This document shows, one piece after another, positions 56,678 through 62,876 of a stretch of 64,000 nucleotides of DNA. Position numbers and translations under genes: made by a program. Within the stretch, counting starts at the first letter, position 1, and each line of letters opens with the position of its first letter. The DNA lies in the sequence record PV808484.1; one strand, written 5' to 3'. Below the pieces are notes generated by a model, which was not told the DNA's origin, searched no databases, and worked only from the letters and a program-made list of their open reading frames with translations. This stretch comes from a phage.

Positions 56678-57571
56678 ATGAAAGTTAGTATTCTACATGG
56701 TGTTGACTGTTATGTTACTGATGTAGACGTTAAAGTGTTTACATTCTCTGGTGGAGAACAACATGTTCAATTAGATACGAACCTGTCAGGTTTCAATCAT
56801 GCTACAGACAGAATCTTACTCACATTAGAAGTAAGATCTGCTAAAGACTTGATGACTTTGGTTATGACTAAGAATGCATTGGACAATATGCTATATCATA
56901 AACCATATTGTGTTGATTTACTCATGTTGTATGTACCGTATGCACGACAAGACAGAGTGTGTGAGCCTGGGGAAGCATTTGGAGTTAAAGCATTTGCTTC
57001 TATAATTAACTCATTAAATTTCTCACGTGTTATCGTTGCTGATCCACACAGTGATGTTACTCCAGCAGTGTTTGACAGACTCTGTGTAATACCTCAAGAA
57101 GAGATTGCTTACGAAACTTTAAAATGGAAGTTACGTATGGAGAATTTTGCTCTTGTTAGTCCTGATGGTGGTGCTCTTAAGAAAATATTTAAATTATCTA
57201 AGAAAATGTCTTTAGATGTGTTCTGTGCAGAGAAGGTTAGAGATACCGCAACAGGTGCTATTGTTCGTACAGACATTTCTGTACAGGATTTCAATAAGCG
57301 TAACCTGATGATCGTAGACGATATCTGTGATGGTGGTAGAACTTTTATCGAATTGGCTAAAGTGCTACGTGCTCGTAACGCAGGTAAGATTGAGCTATAT
57401 GTTACACACGGTATCTTTTCTAAAGGTCTTAAAGAGTTAAGTGAGCACTTTGACTGCATTCATTCTCTTAATATATGGGAAGATAACATCCAAGAAGATT
57501 CCGGTGTTCTTGTTAAGAATCAGTCAGATTTGCAACAACAAATTGTATCTCCATACGTGTGGAATTTTTAA
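56678..57571 (+). CDS. prs: ribose-phosphate pyrophosphokinase (Prs)-like enzyme; candidate ADP-ribose pyrophosphokinase
   Basis: YVPYARQDR, VIVADPHSD and MIVDDICDGGRTF phosphoribosyltransferase-type blocks aligned to Prs. Confidence 0.8.
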   Translation: MKVSILHGVDCYVTDVDVKVFTFSGGEQHVQLDTNLSGFNHATDRILLTLEVRSAKDLMTLVMTKNALDNMLYHKPYCVDLLMLYVPYARQDRVCEPGEAFGVKAFASIINSLNFSRVIVADPHSDVTPAVFDRLCVIPQEEIAYETLKWKLRMENFALVSPDGGALKKIFKLSKKMSLDVFCAEKVRDTATGAIVRTDISVQDFNKRNLMIVDDICDGGRTFIELAKVLRARNAGKIELYVTHGIFSKGLKELSEHFDCIHSLNIWEDNIQEDSGVLVKNQSDLQQQIVSPYVWNF

Positions 57572-57581
57572 ATAATAAGTG

Positions 57582-57625
57582 TTGACAATAGGGAGTATGC
57601 TTAGTAAGATACTCCCACACTAACA
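57582..57625 (+). promoter_or_regulatory. TTGACA promoter plus leader hairpin GGGAGTAT-N-ATACTCCC
   Basis: read directly upstream of ATG 57643. Confidence 0.45.
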
Positions 57626-57642
57626 AACAAGGAGACATAACT

Positions 57643-59376
57643 ATGAATATTTTTGCACCTTTTGCTACTGATTGGTATAAACCTGGTCACAAGCAGATGT
57701 ACAACCAAAATACAAAACTTATTTTCTCTAATTTAACTCCTCGTAATGATAAAAACTTTGCACACTATGCAGATCGTGAAGCACGTGGTGTCATTGTTTT
57801 AGGTATTCGTAGAGCAGTAACCGATGCTCTTGTAACTATGTGGGACGGCTTCTTTAAAATGTCTCGTAGTGCAGCAGTAAATAAATTTTATCGTATGTCT
57901 AAAAATGCATTAGGTGCTTCTGCTCCTTCTGCTGAATGTTGGGGAGAATTGCACGATTTAGGTTATCTTCCGCTGGAAGTTCGATCTCTGCCAGAAGGTG
58001 TTTTGTGTCCTATTGGTGTTCCTGTGTTTACTGTGCATAATACTTTAGAAAAATTCTTTTGGTTAACTAATTATGTGGAAACACTGTTGTCAGATGAAAC
58101 TTGGAAGACAATGACTAATGCCACAGCAGCTTTTCAGTATAAGCGTATCGCTATGGCATATGCGATGGCAACGTGTGATAATATTGATCACGTTAACTTC
58201 CAGTGTCATGACTTTAGCCTACGTGGTTTAAGTAATATCGAAGATGGTTATAAGAGTGGTATCGCTCATTTGGCATCGTTCACAGGAACAGATAATATTC
58301 TGGCTATTGAAACTGTACATGATTATTATGGTATTGATTATGATCAGTTTGTTGCAGGTTCTATTCCGGCTACAGAACATTCAGTAGCAACGACTAACAT
58401 TGGAGCTATTGTTGAAGATCTGAAGGAACATTTCCCACGTCTTAAAGATGATGTAGATTGGCTTCGTTATGTAGCAGAAAAAGAGTTTCTTCGTCGTTAT
58501 ATTGAAGAAATTGTTCCAGAAGGTTTTTGTTCATATGTAGCAGATTCTTATGATTACTGGGCTGTATTGACTAACATTCTGGTAGAGTTGAAAGATTCTA
58601 TTATGTCACGAAATGGTCGTCTTGTTATTCGTCCAGACTCAGGAGATCCGGTTAAAGTTGTTGCAGGATACAATATTGAATCTTTTGATAACTATGAAGA
58701 CCTTTTAAATAATGGTATTGCGACAGCCACTGAAGTAGTTCATTTGGCTGATGTTAATAAGTATTACAATGTTCTTCAGGATTGCAGTGTTGCTGACTGT
58801 ATTGATGAAACTTATGAAATTCCTTATTATGAAGCAGTAGGTTCTATTCAAATCCTTTGGGAAGTGTTTGGTGGTACTATCAACCGAAAAGGCTACAAGG
58901 TTCTTGATCAGCATATCGGTATGATTTATGGTGATTCTATTACTGTTGAACGAGAACACGAGATCTTACGCCGACTGAAGAAGAAAGGTTTTGCAGCTTC
59001 CAATATTGTATTTGGTGTTGGTAGTTATACTTATCAGTTCAATACACGAGATACTTTCGGTTTTGCTGTTAAAGCAACAGGTAGTATCATCGGTGAACAC
59101 GAAATTTTGGTAAGTAAGGAGCCTAAAACTGATCCTGGTAAACGCTCTGCAAAAGGCTTTATTAAGGTTGTTAAGGATACCAATGGTAATCTCTCTCTTG
59201 TAGATAATCTTTCTTTTAAAGATATCCAGGATGAAGACAATGAGTTACAAGTTATCTTCAAGAATGGTAAGGTTATTACACCACAAGTAGAAGGACGTGA
59301 TGAAACATTTACTGATATCCGCAACCGTGTTGACGTAGAGGTTCTTCGTACTATGGGAACCATCCAGGTTGACTAA
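57643..59376 (+). CDS. nadV: nicotinamide phosphoribosyltransferase (NAMPT/NadV)-like enzyme
   Basis: N-terminal FATDWYKPGHKQMY block typical of NAMPT; 577 aa with extensions. Confidence 0.85.
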   Translation: MNIFAPFATDWYKPGHKQMYNQNTKLIFSNLTPRNDKNFAHYADREARGVIVLGIRRAVTDALVTMWDGFFKMSRSAAVNKFYRMSKNALGASAPSAECWGELHDLGYLPLEVRSLPEGVLCPIGVPVFTVHNTLEKFFWLTNYVETLLSDETWKTMTNATAAFQYKRIAMAYAMATCDNIDHVNFQCHDFSLRGLSNIEDGYKSGIAHLASFTGTDNILAIETVHDYYGIDYDQFVAGSIPATEHSVATTNIGAIVEDLKEHFPRLKDDVDWLRYVAEKEFLRRYIEEIVPEGFCSYVADSYDYWAVLTNILVELKDSIMSRNGRLVIRPDSGDPVKVVAGYNIESFDNYEDLLNNGIATATEVVHLADVNKYYNVLQDCSVADCIDETYEIPYYEAVGSIQILWEVFGGTINRKGYKVLDQHIGMIYGDSITVEREHEILRRLKKKGFAASNIVFGVGSYTYQFNTRDTFGFAVKATGSIIGEHEILVSKEPKTDPGKRSAKGFIKVVKDTNGNLSLVDNLSFKDIQDEDNELQVIFKNGKVITPQVEGRDETFTDIRNRVDVEVLRTMGTIQVD

Positions 59377-59796: not shown

Positions 59797-59830
59797 GTTA
59801 CAGATTAAGAAAAAATATTGTAAAAACTAG

Positions 59831-59860
59831 TTGACAACATAGCTAGTTATTTGCTAAGAT
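59831..59860 (+). promoter_or_regulatory. TTGACA-type promoter
   Basis: TTGACA 59831-59836, TAAGAT about 18 bp downstream. Confidence 0.4.
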
Positions 59861-59889
59861 AAGCACAAGTTAAACAAAAGGAGAAAACT

Positions 59890-60156
59890 ATGACAGAAAA
59901 GACTTATGGCAAAGAATTGATTGAGAAGCACGTATTGATTGATAATAAAGGTGGAGCAATCTTTATTTTTGATCCTGAATCAGTTCTTACTGAAAACGAA
60001 AATGGTAGCGTTAGCCTTAAAACAGAAAGTTTGGTAATTGACTTCCTTGCTCTTCTGGATGAAATGGGGCTTCCTCACGAAGAAGAAGCAGCTATTGCTT
60101 TGATTGCAGTTCTTCTGGAGAAACGCGAAGCTGGTGAAATGACCCAGTATGCTTAA
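59890..60156 (+). CDS. hypothetical protein
   Basis: ORF track; AAAGGAG RBS. Confidence 0.5.
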   Translation: MTEKTYGKELIEKHVLIDNKGGAIFIFDPESVLTENENGSVSLKTESLVIDFLALLDEMGLPHEEEAAIALIAVLLEKREAGEMTQYA

Positions 60157-60163
60157 TATTCAA

Positions 60164-60239
60164 GGTTCCATAGCTCACTGACGAGAGCGCACACCTCATA
60201 AGTGTCGAGGGCAGGGATTGTAACACTGGGGAACCACCA
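60164..60239 (+). tRNA. tRNA-like element, possible tRNA-Met (anticodon loop CTCATAA), atypical T-loop
   Basis: 6 bp acceptor pairing GGTTCC/GGAACC, ACCA 3' end, D-stem GCTC/GAGC; T-loop ATTGTAA non-canonical. Confidence 0.35.
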
Positions 60240-60270
60240 TTTAAAAGGAGGTGTTATGCATCTCCTATAT

Positions 60271-60356
60271 GCAAGTGTGGTGGAATTGGTGATACACATT
60301 GTGCTTAAAACGCAACGCTTAAATGATTGAGGGTTCGAATCCCTCCACTTGCACCA
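60271..60356 (+). tRNA. tRNA-Leu (anticodon TAA), class II
   Basis: acceptor GCAAGTG/CACTTGC, T-arm GAGGG-TTCGAAT-CCCTC, anticodon loop CTTAAAA, long variable arm, encoded CCA. Confidence 0.7.
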
Positions 60357-60358
60357 AC

Positions 60359-60464
60359 GCCTAGTAGGGTATTTGGTAATTCCGAGGCCATCAAAGCCTG
60401 AAAAATATGTTAGACCGCTTTGTCTAACTAAATACGAAATATGGTTCGATTCCATAACTAGGCT
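60359..60464 (+). tRNA. atypical 106 nt tRNA-like element
   Basis: perfect 7 bp acceptor GCCTAGT/ACTAGGC and canonical T-arm TATGG-TTCGATT-CCATA, but about 30 nt too long; candidate anticodon loop CATCAAA. Confidence 0.3.
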
Positions 60465-60497
60465 TCAATTTAAATAGTAATTTTAGTAAAAAATATC

Positions 60498-60526
60498 TTG
60501 ACATTTACTTAGTTTTTTGTTATAGT
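60498..60526 (+). promoter_or_regulatory. promoter TTGACA-17-TATAGT driving downstream tRNAs
   Basis: read directly; ideal 17 bp spacing. Confidence 0.55.
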
Positions 60527-60537
60527 CGTTATGAAAA

Positions 60538-60619
60538 CGGGGTGTATCTCACCTGACTTCTAATCAGGCGTTAACCGAGTAATTGGAGTATGCAGGTTCG
60601 AATCCTGTCACCCCGGCCA
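60538..60619 (+). tRNA. tRNA-like element, possible tRNA-Arg (anticodon loop CTTCTAA) with irregular D region
   Basis: perfect acceptor CGGGGTG/CACCCCG, T-arm GCAGG-TTCGAAT-CCTGT, CCA; perfect stem-loop CCTGA-CTTCTAA-TCAGG; cloverleaf not resolved. Confidence 0.4.
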
Positions 60620-60682
60620 AAAAGTTTTAAAAACTACTTGACAAGCAAGATAGTTTTATGTTAGATTTAAAGTATGATAACT

Positions 60683-60772
60683 GGAAGGTAGGGCGCAGCG
60701 GTGCGCAACCAGGTTTGAACCCTGGCCCATTGTAGCGATACGGTGATGGTTCGACTCCATTATCTTCCTCCA
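60683..60772 (+). tRNA. tRNA-Ser (anticodon TGA), class II
   Basis: acceptor GGAAGGT/ATCTTCC, D-arm GCGC-AGCGGT-GCGC, anticodon arm CCAGG-TTTGAAC-CCTGG, 19 nt variable arm, T-arm GATGG-TTCGACT-CCATT, CCA. Confidence 0.8.
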
Positions 60773-60790
60773 AATTCAATGAGTGATTTT

Positions 60791-60943
60791 ATGAATTATA
60801 AAACTATTGGACAGGTTGTTACCGGAGTTAAGATTGTAAATAATAAAGTTGTTTATGAGTATTCTAATCTTCAACAATCTGAAGATGGTAAGAATATTCG
60901 TATGGTAAAAGCAGAACAAAAAGATTCCGGTTGTTTTGAATAA
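60791..60943 (+). CDS. hypothetical protein (50 aa)
   Basis: internal ATG of ORF 60743..60943; the upstream part overlaps tRNA-Ser. Confidence 0.35.
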   Translation: MNYKTIGQVVTGVKIVNNKVVYEYSNLQQSEDGKNIRMVKAEQKDSGCFE

Positions 60944-60951
60944 TTAAGAAC

Positions 60952-61037
60952 GGTAGATTGGTGAAATGGTAGCCACAACAGTTTGCTAAACTGTCGTCGG
61001 AAACGGCGTGTAGGTTCAAGTCCTACATCTACCGCCA
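60952..61037 (+). tRNA. tRNA-Ser (anticodon GCT), class II
   Basis: acceptor GGTAGAT/ATCTACC, anticodon arm ACAGT-TTGCTAA-ACTGT, variable hairpin CGTCGGAAACGGCG, T-arm GTAGG-TTCAAGT-CCTAC, CCA. Confidence 0.8.
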
Positions 61038-61172
61038 AGTTATCTTTAATGTAGCTTGTAATCTTACTTTAGCAGAGTAAATCTTCGGCAAGTGGCGGTA
61101 ACCACTTTACCGATACCCCAATACTTCATAGCTAAGTGCCGCAAACACTGGCTATTTTAAAGATAATTTTAT

Positions 61173-61247
61173 ACATCGTTAGCCAAGCGGTAAGGCACTT
61201 GACTTTTAATCAAGGGAGCGAAGGTTCGAATCCTTCACGATGTACCA
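61173..61247 (+). tRNA. tRNA-Lys (anticodon TTT)
   Basis: acceptor ACATCGT/ACGATGT, anticodon arm CTTGA-CTTTTAA-TCAAG, T-arm GAAGG-TTCGAAT-CCTTC, CCA. Confidence 0.85.
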
Positions 61248-61252
61248 AACAC

Positions 61253-61339
61253 GTAGGTATCGCATAGCGGCAATTGCTGGAGACTGTAAATCTCCTGCCC
61301 TTCGGGGCTTCGTTGGTTCGAGTCCAACTACCTGCACCA
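61253..61339 (+). tRNA. tRNA-Tyr (anticodon GTA), class II
   Basis: acceptor GTAGGTA/TACCTGC (one G-U), anticodon arm GGAGA-CTGTAAA-TCTCC, variable hairpin, T-arm GTTGG-TTCGAGT-CCAAC, CCA. Confidence 0.8.
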
Positions 61340-61346
61340 AATTAAA

Positions 61347-61431
61347 GATGGATTGGCCTAGTGGTTGGGCGACGGACTGTTAATCCGTGAACGAAAGTTC
61401 TAGCAAGGTTCAAATCCTTGATCCATCGCCA
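61347..61431 (+). tRNA. tRNA with Asn anticodon (GTT) on a class II (long variable arm) scaffold
   Basis: acceptor GATGGAT/ATCCATC, 3 bp D-stem GCC/GGC, anticodon arm ACGGA-CTGTTAA-TCCGT, 15 nt extra arm GAACGAAAGTTCTAG, T-arm CAAGG-TTCAAAT-CCTTG, G73, CCA. Confidence 0.65.
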
Positions 61432-61435
61432 AATA

Positions 61436-61504
61436 GTGCTTGTAGAGTTAATAGAAACCTCTAGAATTTTCTAGAATTGTAGGTATCAAATCCTACCAAG
61501 CAAA
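61436..61504 (+). tRNA. tRNA-like element, no encoded CCA, irregular anticodon region
   Basis: 6 bp acceptor pairing, T-arm GTAGG...CCTAC with 8 nt loop; region contains TCTAGA-ATTTTC-TAGA palindrome. Confidence 0.25.
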
Positions 61505-61510
61505 TATTTT

Positions 61511-61585
61511 GCTCCTATCGTATAACGGCTATTACGGTTGCCTTGTAAGCAACTTATCAGGGTTCGAGTCCTTGTGGGAGCACCA
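61511..61585 (+). tRNA. tRNA-Thr (anticodon TGT)
   Basis: acceptor GCTCCTA/TGGGAGC (one G-U), anticodon arm GTTGC-CTTGTAA-GCAAC, T-arm CAGGG-TTCGAGT-CCTTG, CCA. Confidence 0.8.
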
Positions 61586-61607
61586 ATTTAACTCTAAAGG
61601 AGTGTAT

Positions 61608-61931
61608 GTGACAGAAAAAGAGTTAGAGAAATATTTTAATATCAATGTTTTCGATGGTTTTGATGATATTGAAGATGTTGAAAGATACTATGAAGTAGAG
61701 TTAGATAAGGATAACATTGTAATTCTTTCTGCCACTTATGATTGTGCATATTATGAAGGCGAATCTCACGTTTATTTCTATGATATGAAAACATCTTTGT
61801 TTTATGAAGTACACGCATATCATTGTTCTTGTTATGGCTTAGAAGGTCAGTGGGAACCTGAAGAAATAGGTGATTTGAGCTTTACGGTTGCATATCTAAA
61901 CAGACGTGGTGCATCTACTATTTTAAAATAA
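61608..61931 (+). CDS. hypothetical protein
   Basis: GTG start 5 nt after AAAGGAG RBS; the ORF-track N-terminus overlaps tRNA-Thr. Confidence 0.45.
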   Translation: MTEKELEKYFNINVFDGFDDIEDVERYYEVELDKDNIVILSATYDCAYYEGESHVYFYDMKTSLFYEVHAYHCSCYGLEGQWEPEEIGDLSFTVAYLNRRGASTILK

Positions 61932-61945
61932 ATATTAAAAGCCTC

Positions 61946-61975
61946 TTGACAAAGGGGCTAATAATATGTTAGAGT
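61946..61975 (+). promoter_or_regulatory. TTGACA-type promoter upstream of tRNA-Gly
   Basis: TTGACA 61946-61951. Confidence 0.45.
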
Positions 61976-61986
61976 AATATTGTTAA

Positions 61987-62061
61987 GCGGGTATAGTGTT
62001 AATGGTAGCATATGAGGTTTCCACCCTCCAGGTGCAGGTTCAAGTCCTGTTACTCGCTCCA
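61987..62061 (+). tRNA. tRNA-Gly (anticodon TCC)
   Basis: acceptor GCGGGTA/TACTCGC, anticodon loop TTTCCAC, T-arm GCAGG-TTCAAGT-CCTGT, CCA. Confidence 0.7.
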
Positions 62062-62160
62062 AGATTATTTAAATGGAATCGCTAGAGAAAATTTCTCTTT
62101 TCGCTCATGGTTTTCTCCTTCAAACTCTAGCGGTTCTTTTTAAGTGATTTTTAGTTTTAT

Positions 62161-62235
62161 TGGAGATTAGCCTAGTGGGAAGGCAACGGCCTTTGAAGTC
62201 GTGATGACTAGGTTCGATTCCTAGATCTCCAGCCA
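62161..62235 (+). tRNA. tRNA-Gln (anticodon TTG)
   Basis: U1-A72 acceptor TGGAGAT/ATCTCCA, anticodon arm ACGGC-CTTTGAA-GTCGT, T-arm CTAGG-TTCGATT-CCTAG, CCA. Confidence 0.85.
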
Positions 62236-62242
62236 ATATTTA

Positions 62243-62318
62243 CAGTGCGTAGCGCAGTTGGTAGCGTGGGAGCTTTGGATGCTTCGGGTCGCAGGTTCGA
62301 GTCCTGCCGCACTGACCA
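62243..62318 (+). tRNA. tRNA-Pro (anticodon TGG)
   Basis: acceptor CAGTGCG/CGCACTG, D-arm GCGC-AGTTGGTA-GCGT, anticodon arm GGAGC-TTTGGAT-GCTTC, T-arm GCAGG-TTCGAGT-CCTGC, CCA. Confidence 0.85.
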
Positions 62319-62323
62319 AATTT

Positions 62324-62398
62324 GCAGAGATAGCTGAGACGGATTAGTGCTACCCTGAAAAGGTAGAAAGGATGGATCGTTACCATCTCTCTGCACCA
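62324..62398 (+). tRNA. tRNA-Phe (anticodon GAA)
   Basis: acceptor GCAGAGA/TCTCTGC, anticodon arm CTACC-CTGAAAA-GGTAG, T-arm GATGG-ATCGTTA-CCATC, CCA. Confidence 0.8.
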
Positions 62399-62475
62399 AA
62401 TAACACCATCCAAGGAGTAGACTTGGTTAACTGTCAATAGCACATTGAGGCTTCTTACAGTGGTGCACTTATTAT

Positions 62476-62560
62476 GGCTAAGTGGTGGAATGGTATACAC
62501 GATACGCTTAGAACGTATTGCCCCAAGGGATTGTGAGTTCGAGTCTCACCTTAGCTACCA
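62476..62560 (+). tRNA. tRNA-Leu (anticodon TAG), class II
   Basis: acceptor GGCTAAG/CTTAGCT, anticodon arm ATACG-CTTAGAA-CGTAT, long variable arm, T-arm GTGAG-TTCGAGT-CTCAC, CCA. Confidence 0.8.
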
Positions 62561-62575
62561 AATTACTACAGATTG

Positions 62576-62654
62576 CGCGGGATAGAGGAGTCTGGTCGTC
62601 CTCGCCAGTTTCATATGCTGGAGATCATCGGTTCGAATCCGATTCCCGCCTCCA
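62576..62654 (+). tRNA. tRNA-Met (anticodon CAT; elongator, initiator or Ile2 not distinguishable)
   Basis: acceptor with one C-C mismatch at pair 1-72, D-arm GAGG...CCTC, anticodon arm CCAGT-TTCATAT-GCTGG, T-arm ATCGG-TTCGAAT-CCGAT, CCA. Confidence 0.7.
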
Positions 62655-62698
62655 ATAAATACTTCCCTTCTGGTGTAATGATTAAATTACATTGACAC

Positions 62699-62795
62699 TT
62701 CAAGGAACTCATAGCCGGGTAGATTTAAAAGAGTATGGTACTCAATATGGCTCCAAACCATAGATCAGGGGGTTCGATTCCTCACCTTGCTGCCA
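62699..62795 (+). tRNA. tRNA-like element with Trp anticodon loop (CTCCAAA) but unpaired or extended 5' region
   Basis: perfect anticodon arm TATGG-CTCCAAA-CCATA, T-arm GGGGG-TTCGATT-CCTCA, CCA; 5' acceptor partner only 5 bp and about 22 nt too far upstream. Confidence 0.35.
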
Positions 62796-62800
62796 ATTAT

Positions 62801-62876
62801 TGTGGTATCGTACAGATGGTTAGTACACTCGACCGATAATCGAGAAACAACGGTTCGACTCCGTTTACCACGACCA
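62801..62876 (+). tRNA. tRNA-Ile (anticodon GAT)
   Basis: acceptor TGTGGTA/TACCACG, D-arm GTAC...GTAC, anticodon arm CTCGA-CCGATAA-TCGAG, T-arm AACGG-TTCGACT-CCGTT, CCA. Confidence 0.85.

Follow-up and report, generated by a model that had tools for sequence, protein, structure and literature searches.

The phage DNA analysed here is a 64,000-nucleotide (nt) stretch of the sequence record PV808484.1, hereafter the window. Its tRNA cluster contains one element, at positions 60359–60467, that has the ends of a tRNA but is far longer than a normal one, and the question is what kind of RNA it encodes. An earlier reading made from the letters alone (the sequence-only reading) had offered four explanations: an intron-containing tRNA, a suppressor-type tRNA with a very long extra arm, a fused pseudo-tRNA, or a different structured RNA. 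We found that the element is one tRNA-shaped molecule with an added domain, not two remnants, and that it is one member of a conserved family of 100–110 nt present in about 150 or more enterobacterial phage genomes. In our best reading, held with about even confidence, it encodes a co-transcribed, tRNA-processed and probably non-decoding tRNA mimic, possibly a decoy for host tRNA-directed factors.

Fold of the element

The family alignment comprised 23 distinct sequences, and a covariance model, R1, was built in this analysis. Positions below follow tRNA numbering where single nucleotides are named, and L numbers are locus labels (L001, phi92; L002, cardinal; L328, 4MG; L330, Mydo). The parts of the element are as follows.

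60359–60467 (+): whole tRNA-like RNA gene (the element), 106 nt to the discriminator, plus UCA; R1 score 95.9 bits
60359–60365 (+): acceptor stem, 5' strand, GCCTAGT; 7 of 7 pairs; G1 and C2 invariant in the family; pairs 3:70, 4:69 and 5:68 covary
60366–60367 (+): positions 8 and 9; A8, invariant, replaces the usual U8; G9 follows
60368–60383 (+): D arm, GGTA-TTTGGTAA-TTCC; 4 base pairs (bp) including a U.U mismatch; three of the four D-stem pairs covary
60384 (+): G26, invariant, opposite G44
60385–60399 (+): anticodon-like arm, AGGC-CATCAAA-GCCT; 4 bp and a 7-nt loop at 60389–60395 with A33 and the triplet UCA; pairs 27:43 and 30:40 covary
60400 (+): G44, invariant
60401–60408 (+): 5' joint of the extra domain, AAAAATAT; conserved, the family consensus being AAAA(A)UA following G44
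60409–60428 (+): hairpin of the extra domain, GTTAGAC-CGCTTT-GTCTAAC; 7 bp
60429–60439 (+): 3' joint of the extra domain, TAAATACGAAA; family consensus (G/U)AAUACAUAG; 5 of 11 columns invariant, mean entropy 0.27 bits
60440–60456 (+): T arm, TATGG-TTCGATT-CCATA; 5 bp, two pairs of which covary
60457–60463 (+): acceptor stem, 3' strand, ACTAGGC, pairing with GCCTAGT
60464 (+): discriminator U73; U across the family except in the rV5-like members L071 and L077 (A)
60465–60467 (+): TCA where CCA would be encoded; CCA is encoded by all 14 tRNAs called by ARAGORN in the window and by most orthologues

The perfect acceptor pairing and the T arm directly 5' of its 3' strand, from which the sequence-only reading had started, are both present. 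That reading had seen two stem-loops in the interior. Both exist, but the D arm had gone unmentioned, so all four tRNA arms are present. The loop of the first stem-loop was correctly placed, but the stem is limited to the 4 bp of AGGC/GCCT, with a G.G mismatch next to them, and the second stem-loop has 7 bp and not 6. Between G44 and the T stem lies a variable region of 39 nt (60401–60439), made of an 8-nt joint, a 20-nt hairpin and an 11-nt joint, the last of which contains a conserved AAUAC. If U14:A21 and U15:A20, both invariant, also paired, the D arm would have 6 bp and a 4-nt loop, which is the form that RNAalifold predicts; the two extra pairs never vary in the family, so the 6-bp D stem is unproven.

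The fold was supported by the alignment in several ways. Standard pairs filled 98.3% of the cells in the 23 sequences, against 31–46% in controls with the partners slid by one to three columns. Two-sided (compensatory) changes were found in 12 of the 23 pairs, across the acceptor, D, anticodon-like and T stems. The elbow pair between D-loop position 19 and T-loop position 56 was G:C in 14 sequences and U:A in 9, and mismatched in none. RNAalifold independently recovered the same cloverleaf, and the acceptor/T helix was 7/5 in all 23 sequences. The single-sequence fold of the element beat shuffled sequences modestly (z = -2.7). Together with the identity of the element in the phages EmilieFrey and cardinal, the paired cells and this fold score speak for more than chance.

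The added domain is also a family trait. The variable region is 39–41 nt across the family, with conserved unpaired joints of 7–9 and 10–11 nt. A hairpin stands at the same place in most members, with unrelated sequences, and 5–7 outer pairs were formed in 14 of the 18 distinct variants; between two close relatives, a C:G pair has become U:A by compensatory change. The D loop, the T loop and the 3' joint are almost invariant across the family (mean entropies of 0.19 and 0.14 bits for the two loops). No conserved Watson-Crick complementarity between the joints, or between joints and loops, was found by eye or with RNAfold and RNAalifold.

The element is almost certainly a real structured RNA gene. 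It is a single molecule, because all four arms of one cloverleaf covary, and the suggestion of a different structured RNA was borne out structurally, as one covarying cloverleaf with a 39-nt domain. No tRNA class has such a structure, in which an extra hairpin is flanked by conserved single-stranded joints, position 8 is A and the anticodon loop is unconstrained. Two other readings of the sequence were rejected. A protein-coding reading fails on stop codons, which interrupt every one of the six frames in Mydo and the majority of frames in most other orthologues examined. A tmRNA-like mini-ORF in the extra domain of this copy (AUG UUA GAC CGC UUU GUC UAA) has an AUG and a frame that are not conserved in the alignment.

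Standard tools missed the element. ARAGORN with default settings called 14 tRNAs within 60271–62876 but not this one. The Rfam tRNA model RF00005 (gathering score 29 bits) gave no match to it at E ≤ 1, nor at E ≤ 10 in a 114-nt search. The top Rfam match was tRNA-Sec (RF01852) at 29.4 bits, under the family threshold of 47 bits. The 95.9-bit R1 match was the only strong one in the window.

The family and its conservation

The region 59800–61200 is 100% identical to Escherichia phage EmilieFrey (Bas61, MZ501063), a phi92-like Justusliebigvirus of the Stephanstirmvirinae, in whose record the element has no annotation. A blastn search with the element returned 31 near-identical copies in Justusliebigvirus-type records, and full-length homologues of ~71% identity in the Erwinia phages Hena1 and pEa_SNUABM_55 (Vequintavirinae, Henunavirus) and in Salmonella phage UTK0002 (Schitoviridae). 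Searching again with the UTK0002 and rV5-like versions added Seunavirus, Mydovirus, Avunavirus and more than 100 rV5-like Vequintavirus genomes. The family range is Justusliebigvirus, five Vequintavirinae genera and one Schitoviridae phage, and a few further variants came from IMG/VR and metagenome contigs; the family thus appears specific to the tRNA clusters of virulent phages of enterobacteria.

An IMG/VR pattern scan yielded L326 and L327 as its only new members; with the pattern CATCAAA...TAAATAC...GGTTCRA, all 58 matches apart from known members were chance occurrences in coding DNA. An nhmmer search over the listed metagenome and genome pattern matches, which were mostly ordinary tRNAs, found five more family members on phage contigs. 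It found none among the bacterial genome loci in the matches listed, wider absence from bacteria being established for E. coli only, where the family was not found in 5,426 complete genomes. The sole plasmid match was to a 137.5-kb record, which from its size and best match is probably an rV5-like phage genome.

Database labels for family members vary between tRNA-TERM/sup(tca), tRNA-OTHER, tRNA-Lys, tRNA-???(atcc), hypothetical protein and nothing at all; the Erwinia phage orthologues are annotated as tRNA-sup(tca). The family was previously undescribed: no description of its RNA was found in the full-text literature, the supplement of a coliphage tRNA library screen (PMC12445682) being outside that search. 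Records that name members tRNA-sup, tRNA-Lys or hypothetical protein need correcting, and R1 could give consistent annotation to a family that standard annotation tools have missed or mislabelled.

The pattern of sequence change points to purifying selection on the element, because EmilieFrey and cardinal differ at 0 of 109 positions within it and at 8 of 70 in the spacer just downstream; other spacers differ by 4–24%. The element is also identical over 109 nt in at least 19 genomes, while the surrounding 1.4 kb is 96–98% identical. In phi92, by comparison, exactly the element and 19 nt downstream are gone (a 125-bp gap) from otherwise almost identical flanks, and some phi92 relatives likewise lack it by clean deletion. 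A copy of 88.5% identity is common to an Erwinia myovirus and a Salmonella N4-like podovirus, and the sequences suggest that the element has been horizontally transferred as a single gene. Such transfer would argue for an RNA whose partners are host components, as opposed to a phage protein confined to one lineage.

These data bear on a first alternative, in which the family is functional elsewhere and the EmilieFrey/Justusliebigvirus copy is a decaying or neutral passenger. The TCA in place of CCA, the D-stem U.U mismatch and the AT-rich stems would fit such decay, as would the clean deletions. This copy and the near-identical L009 (95.7 bits) also have the lowest R1 scores of the family, the others ranging over 98–121 bits. 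However, a passenger would not be expected to stay unchanged in so many genomes amid diverged flanks, or against cardinal beside a spacer that has changed, and all helices are intact save for the one mismatch. We consider this alternative unlikely, though it is the strongest of those weighed here.

Decoding and charging

The sequence-only reading had compared the loop CATCAAA with the CTTCAAA loop of opal-reading tRNAs, with A at position 33. The likeness is real, and the top match to tRNA-Sec agrees with it. Across the family, the anticodon-like loops are 5–8 nt long and carry the triplets UCA, UCC, GCC, UUU and UAU. The variants CAUCAAA and AAUCAAG have 7 nt on a 4-bp stem, with A33 and UCA, and A33 is retained in all UCA members with 7-nt loops. 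CAUCCA, CUUCCA, CCUCCA, CCGCCA, CAGCCA and CCUCAA are loops of 6 nt on a 5-bp stem, and UUUUUAA and UUUAUAA occur in the rV5-like members and Av-05. A 5-bp stem combined with a 7-nt loop was seen in no family member.

The loop has a mean entropy of 0.78 bits, the highest of the short unpaired regions. Five of the 17 substitution events inferred among near-identical members fell in six loop columns, at positions 33, 34 and 36 (binomial p = 0.0018), which would rank among the most constrained in a decoding tRNA. Among the canonical-tRNA features tested, the element has the 7/5 helices with a UUCRANY T loop and the D arm and elbow, and departs from a canonical tRNA in its anticodon arm, the size of its variable region, its detection by tools and its encoded 3' end. 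The anticodon-like arm is non-canonical and freely evolving, and in our judgement the element is probably not a ribosomal decoder.

The suggestion of a suppressor-type tRNA with a very long extra arm fared well as to structure, a cloverleaf with a 39-nt domain, but not as to function. As a full alternative, the element, with its giant variable arm, would function as an opal (UGA) suppressor: a charged tRNA, most plausibly carrying glycine, that allows UGA stops to be read through at a low level. Its loop, with UCA at 34–36 and A37, is one substitution away from CUUCAAA, and the AUCAA core is retained in four lineages (Justusliebigvirus, Henunavirus, UTK0002 and L326). When the extra domain was cut to 5 nt in silico, ARAGORN drew a normal cloverleaf and called it (tca). 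UGA suppressors derived from glyT, tRNA-Gly(UCA), are known in E. coli. The tRNA-sup(tca) label of the Erwinia orthologues and the top Rfam match also favour this alternative, and functional phage tRNAs tolerate shortened anticodon stems (PMC12445682).

Against it stand the loss of the near-universal U33, the 4-bp stem, the bulky variable domain, the 6-nt loops and other triplets of sister-lineage orthologues, and the position of the loop as a substitution hot spot. UGA is an ordinary stop of this phage within the window, which covers 64 kb of a 147-kb genome: it terminates 12 of the 72 long ORFs there, and in-frame extensions beyond it run to 0–47 codons, none of them long. This copy does not encode CCA, and phi92 manages without the element. 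A working opal suppressor is unlikely on account of A33, the short stem, the variable anticodon of the orthologues and the ordinary use of UGA, and we rank it slightly below the passenger alternative.

The acceptor end was more constant than the loop. G1-C72 and C2-G71 are invariant in the family and U73 is found in 21 of the 23 sequences. The glycine identity set of E. coli consists of U73, G1-C72, C2-G71, C35 and C36, and the combination of U73 with G71 is exclusive to tRNA-Gly and is read by the TacT toxin (PMC9976931). The element has U73, G1-C72 and C2-G71 of this set, and within the window only tRNA-Gly and the element combine G1, C2 and U73. C2-G71 is in addition listed as an antideterminant against SerRS in E. 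coli tRNA-Leu (PMC9976931). Every Seunavirus and Mydovirus member has C35, and C36 is missing from NINP13076 (UCA) alone, whereas positions 33 and 34 are variable. Such a pattern would be expected of an RNA for which charging identity counts but decoding does not. In the rV5-like branch, the triplet (UUU) and the discriminator (A73) are both changed, to the lysine identity set (PMC9976931). These identity nucleotides leave charging of the element with glycine a plausible prediction, if one that falls somewhat short of even.

Descent from tRNA-Gly or from a host tRNA received no support from overall similarity, and the tRNA nearest to the element is not tRNA-Gly in EmilieFrey, KE22 or Mydo. The 4MG annotation and the ARAGORN list would suggest that the phage has no tRNA-Gly other than the element, but this idea was also rejected: EmilieFrey, KE22, Mydo and 4MG each have a separate tRNA-Gly(UCC). 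The 4MG gene, a T5-type tRNA-Gly(UCC) at L328 5425–5498 (-) with A8 and an unusual D arm, lies at the syntenic site and was missed by both the record annotation and ARAGORN; when it is omitted, the tRNA set of this phage falsely seems to lack glycine alone.

By analogy with the staphylococcal non-proteinogenic tRNA-Gly, the element could carry glycine and hand it over in a reaction outside the ribosome. The glycine-type acceptor end, the C35 conserved throughout and C36 conserved in most members, the non-decoding anticodon arm and the co-existing canonical tRNA-Gly would all suit such a carrier. No aminoacyl-tRNA-dependent transferase was identified in these phages, although no search aimed at one was made. 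An element that relied on a phage partner would not be expected to have moved alone into an unrelated Schitoviridae phage, and the rV5-like branch has switched to A73 and UUU. We regard a carrier role as improbable.

Genomic setting and proposed role

The element lies in the tRNA cluster 3' of the genes for PRPP synthetase and nicotinamide phosphoribosyltransferase. The following features bound its likely transcription unit.

59831–59860 (+): sigma-70-type promoter-like site, TTGACA-18-TAAGAT, from a consensus scan
60271–60356 (+): tRNA-Leu(UAA), called by ARAGORN; Rfam tRNA 57.1 bits; its end is separated from the start of the element by 2 nt
60498–60526 (+): next promoter-like site, TTGACA-17-TATAGT, from a consensus scan; it starts the following unit and sets the downstream limit

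Judged from its sequence, the site at 59831–59860 probably drives a unit of ORF 59890–60156, a tRNA-Met-like sequence, tRNA-Leu and the element. The tRNA-Leu 2 nt upstream provides the context in which we infer co-transcription of the element and processing by RNase P.

This setting could also accommodate a cis-acting element with no role as a free RNA, either a processing signal for the upstream tRNA-Leu or an antisense terminator. The element follows tRNA-Leu so closely and comes last in the transcription unit; on the minus strand, the reverse complement of the extra-domain hairpin (60409–60428) and the T-run opposite the A-rich joint (60401–60408) score as an intrinsic terminator. Yet phi92 keeps tRNA-Leu without the element, and a processing signal needs no conserved D/T elbow, extra domain or encoded CCA. 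The terminator score is probably incidental since the nearby genes are all on the plus strand, and a cis-acting element is very improbable.

An intron-containing tRNA, or two truncated tRNA remnants fused together, is hardly credible: the 106-nt length and the calls that ARAGORN does yield in intron mode favour it, but those six calls, Leu(caa), Ile(aat), Gly(ccc), Met(cat), Gln(ttg) and Asn(gtt), are mutually inconsistent and differ by orthologue, as do the position and length of the called intron (the pattern of an artefact), the insert lies in the variable-region position outside the anticodon loop, Rfam holds no intron or ribozyme match, and the alignment to related phages, proposed earlier as the test for two truncated remnants, shows a single cloverleaf whose four arms covary as a unit.

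For the preferred reading, a non-decoding tRNA mimic, we propose the following course of events. The RNA would be transcribed from the 59831–59860 site together with ORF 59890–60156, the tRNA-Met-like sequence and tRNA-Leu, and RNase P would cleave at G60359. The 3' end would be trimmed, and CCA addition by the host enzyme is proposed because this copy encodes UCA. The RNA would then adopt an L shape with the extra domain projecting from it, and GlyRS may charge it with glycine. On the ribosome it would be non-decoding; as a tRNA mimic, it could bind a host tRNA-directed factor or be preferentially attacked by one, and the conserved joints of the extra domain may form a family-specific recognition surface. 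As a decoy or sponge, its most likely role, it would draw off a defence nuclease or toxin that targets tRNAs, or else a synthetase.

A decoy or anti-defence role is a tentative proposal, and we hold it to be less probable than charging with glycine. Phage tRNAs counter the tRNA-cleaving defences PARIS, retron-Eco7 and P2-OLD through changes in the anticodon stem-loop (PMC11464382, PMC11555353, PMC12445682, PMC10264068), and in sister phages the tRNA-Lys gene near the element has exchanged its D and anticodon arms. Both are context for a decoy, not proof of one.

Several points weigh against this reading as a whole. What was demonstrated is how the RNA folds, how it is conserved and where it lies in the genome; each later step is inference. 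The assignment to glycine comes from identity nucleotides only; the element has C35 but A36, not C36, and no overall similarity of its core to phage tRNA-Gly or host E. coli tRNAs was found. Clean loss in phi92 means that the element is dispensable in at least one host, and the copy in the window looks slightly eroded, with no encoded CCA, the D-stem mismatch and 39% GC. In the rV5-like member, U33 precedes UUU in a loop of 7 nt, the discriminator is A73, and a score of 35.5 bits clears the Rfam tRNA threshold; at least this branch could be a functional tRNA-Lys, and none of the six tRNAs that the rV5 paper reports for the phage is a tRNA-Lys (PMC3606486). Phage tRNA-Thr can function with a shortened anticodon stem (PMC12445682), and stem length alone is therefore not decisive against decoding. 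The variability of the loop could reflect relaxed constraint and not an arms race.

Comparison with known RNAs placed the element near several groups, but the family lacks features that define canonical tRNA, tRNA-Sec, allo-tRNA, intron-containing tRNA and suppressor tRNA. Class II tRNAs and tRNA-Sec (RF00005, RF01852) share with the element a cloverleaf in which an extra stem-loop separates the anticodon arm from the T arm, as well as the T loop UUCGAUU and D-loop G18/G19. With tRNA-Sec it further shares the UCA triplet, possibly the 6-bp D stem with a 4-nt loop, and a sub-threshold match. Unlike these tRNAs, the family has its long variable region with conserved unpaired joints, and the element misses both Rfam thresholds. 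Class II tRNAs have a stem-loop of at most about 20 nt with minimal joints, and class I tRNAs a region of 4–5 nt, against 39 nt here. Bacterial tRNA-Sec has an 8/5, 13-bp helix and G73, whereas the element has 7/5 and U73; C2-G71, A33 and the non-canonical anticodon arm also set it apart from both types.

The nearest concept to the family is that of the tRNA-like stable RNAs of T4 and T5. The RNAs of T5 (RNA1, RNA2, RNAI, RNAIII and RNAIV) and T4 (rnaC/species 1 and rnaD/species 2) are likewise encoded inside phage tRNA clusters and are 103–144 nt long. In GenBank they are entered as stable RNAs whose function is unknown, with T5 RNA1 and RNA2 described as tRNA-like. As in the element, T5 RNA1, T5 RNA2 and T4 rnaC have a tRNA-type T arm around a larger interior, and the two T5 RNAs also have an acceptor-like terminal helix. 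Their interiors are organised otherwise, whereas the family keeps a full D arm and an anticodon-like arm. R1 matched no T5 stable RNA and gave T4 rnaC at most 9.4 bits, that is, no detectable homology.

Phage tRNAs that evade nucleases, namely T5 tRNA-Lys with PARIS, tRNA-Tyr with retron-Eco7 and tRNA-Thr with P2-OLD, are also tRNA-cluster genes whose anticodon stem-loops are unlike those of the host, shortened stems included (PMC11464382, PMC11555353, PMC12445682). Within the family, the rV5-like member has UUU and A73, the lysine identity set (PMC9976931). The nuclease-evading tRNAs appear to be decoders that rescue translation by reading the codon (PMC12445682), and most family members cannot plausibly decode. 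Phage suppressor tRNAs and glyT-derived E. coli UGA suppressors share with the element the UCA triplet, a glycine-type acceptor end and the tRNA-sup(tca) label given to orthologues; A33, the 4-bp stem, the giant variable domain, an unconserved triplet and no sign of UGA recoding within the window separate it from them.

Allo-tRNAs are irregular tRNAs in which the V arm is long, the D arm resembles that of tRNA-Sec and the discriminator is G73 or U73, and they may be non-decoding or suppressors; the related 8/4 tRNA-Ser and tRNA-His occur in phage tRNA clusters (PMC5389517). The defining traits of allo-tRNAs are an acceptor/T helix of 8/4 or 9/3 and a longer anticodon stem (PMC5389517), in contrast to the 7/5 helix and shorter stem of the family. 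Bacillus cereus tRNA-Other, the tRNA-like domain of tmRNA and YrlA are processed tRNA mimics, some of them charged, that are not ordinary decoders (PMC3399842, PMC4201824). They lack at least one tRNA arm or open at the anticodon side, whereas the family has all arms and an added domain, and the element matched none of these non-translational tRNA-like RNAs in sequence or by Rfam model.

More broadly, the family might represent a new class of phage non-decoding tRNA mimics with a glycine-type end, which serve as bait for host factors that attack or sense tRNAs; we consider this doubtful, more so than the decoy role itself. The extra domain and the fast-evolving anticodon-like loop would then enable the decoy or sponge action. 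Candidate targets would be anticodon nucleases, CCA-end-modifying enzymes and GNAT toxins with specificity for U73 and G71. Phage tRNA clusters have lately been recognised as loci of counter-defence against immune systems that cleave tRNAs, among them PARIS, retron-Eco7, P2-OLD and Schlafens. If the bait reading is true, bait would join replacement as a second strategy of phage tRNAs against tRNA-targeting immunity, and a mimic that does not decode would give a testable example of RNA bait in the conflict over tRNAs. The family sits in the tRNA clusters of model and therapeutic coliphage groups (rV5-like, phi92-like and PVP-SE1-like, including phages of the BASEL collection), and as a mimic, if it is one, it may illuminate the long-unexplained stable RNAs of T4 and T5.

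Other irregular tRNA genes were seen in these clusters. A tRNA-Arg(UCU)-like gene at 60538–60616 (+), behind the promoter-like site at 60498–60526, has its D arm replaced by 4 nt and a variable region of ~22 nt. It scored 38.6 bits with the Rfam tRNA model and is missed by ARAGORN; the cardinal record labels it tRNA-OTHER, EmilieFrey leaves it unannotated, and phi92 has a copy. The tRNA-Met-like sequence at 60164–60240 (+), directly 3' of ORF 59890–60156, has the loop CUCAUAA and an aberrant T loop. It was called here by neither ARAGORN nor Rfam, and its phi92 orthologue is a tRNA-Met to ARAGORN and a 'hypothetical tRNA' in the record.

An unannotated tRNA-Trp-like sequence at 62714–62797 (+), between tRNA-Met and tRNA-Ile and with a TTGACA at ~62693, contains TATGG-CTCCAAA-CCATA, the T loop TTCGATT and a 3' GCCA, with an imperfect acceptor stem and an odd D arm. 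It gave weak matches only (tRNA-Sec 22 bits, R1 16 bits) and folded no better than shuffles. The tRNA-Asn(GUU) at 61347–61431 (+) is 85 nt long, with a variable loop unusually long for class I, and the orthologues in 4MG (89 nt) and KE22 (85 nt) are alike in this.

Between EmilieFrey and cardinal, 21 of the 75 positions of the neighbouring tRNA-Lys(UUU) at 61173–61247 (+) differ: its D and anticodon arms have been replaced, whereas its acceptor and T arms are the same. Judged from the sequences, the part recognised by anticodon nucleases seems to have been diversified by exchange of cassettes. The phi92 allele of this tRNA-Lys is read by ARAGORN with a 6-nt anticodon loop. Loops of 6 nt were also found in the well-formed tRNAs L330 6129–6203 (Mydo), L328 5265–5334 (4MG) and L001 3749–3824 (phi92), which ARAGORN reports as 'tRNA-???' (ga), (gt) and (tt), so irregular anticodon loops recur in these clusters beyond the family of the element.

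Near-consensus sigma-70 promoter-like sites at 59831–59860, 60498–60526 and 60638–60667 (+), with 10–11 of 12 matches and each with an extended -10 TG, all stand 5' of individual tRNA or tRNA-like genes, and the cluster therefore appears to be made of many very short transcription units. The PRPP synthetase and nicotinamide phosphoribosyltransferase (NAMPT) genes, of NAD salvage, occupy 56678–59376 (+), ~1 kb 5' of the first tRNA-like gene. A NAMPT gene likewise lies upstream of the tRNA cluster in Mydo, and the cluster may be part of a wider counter-defence region.

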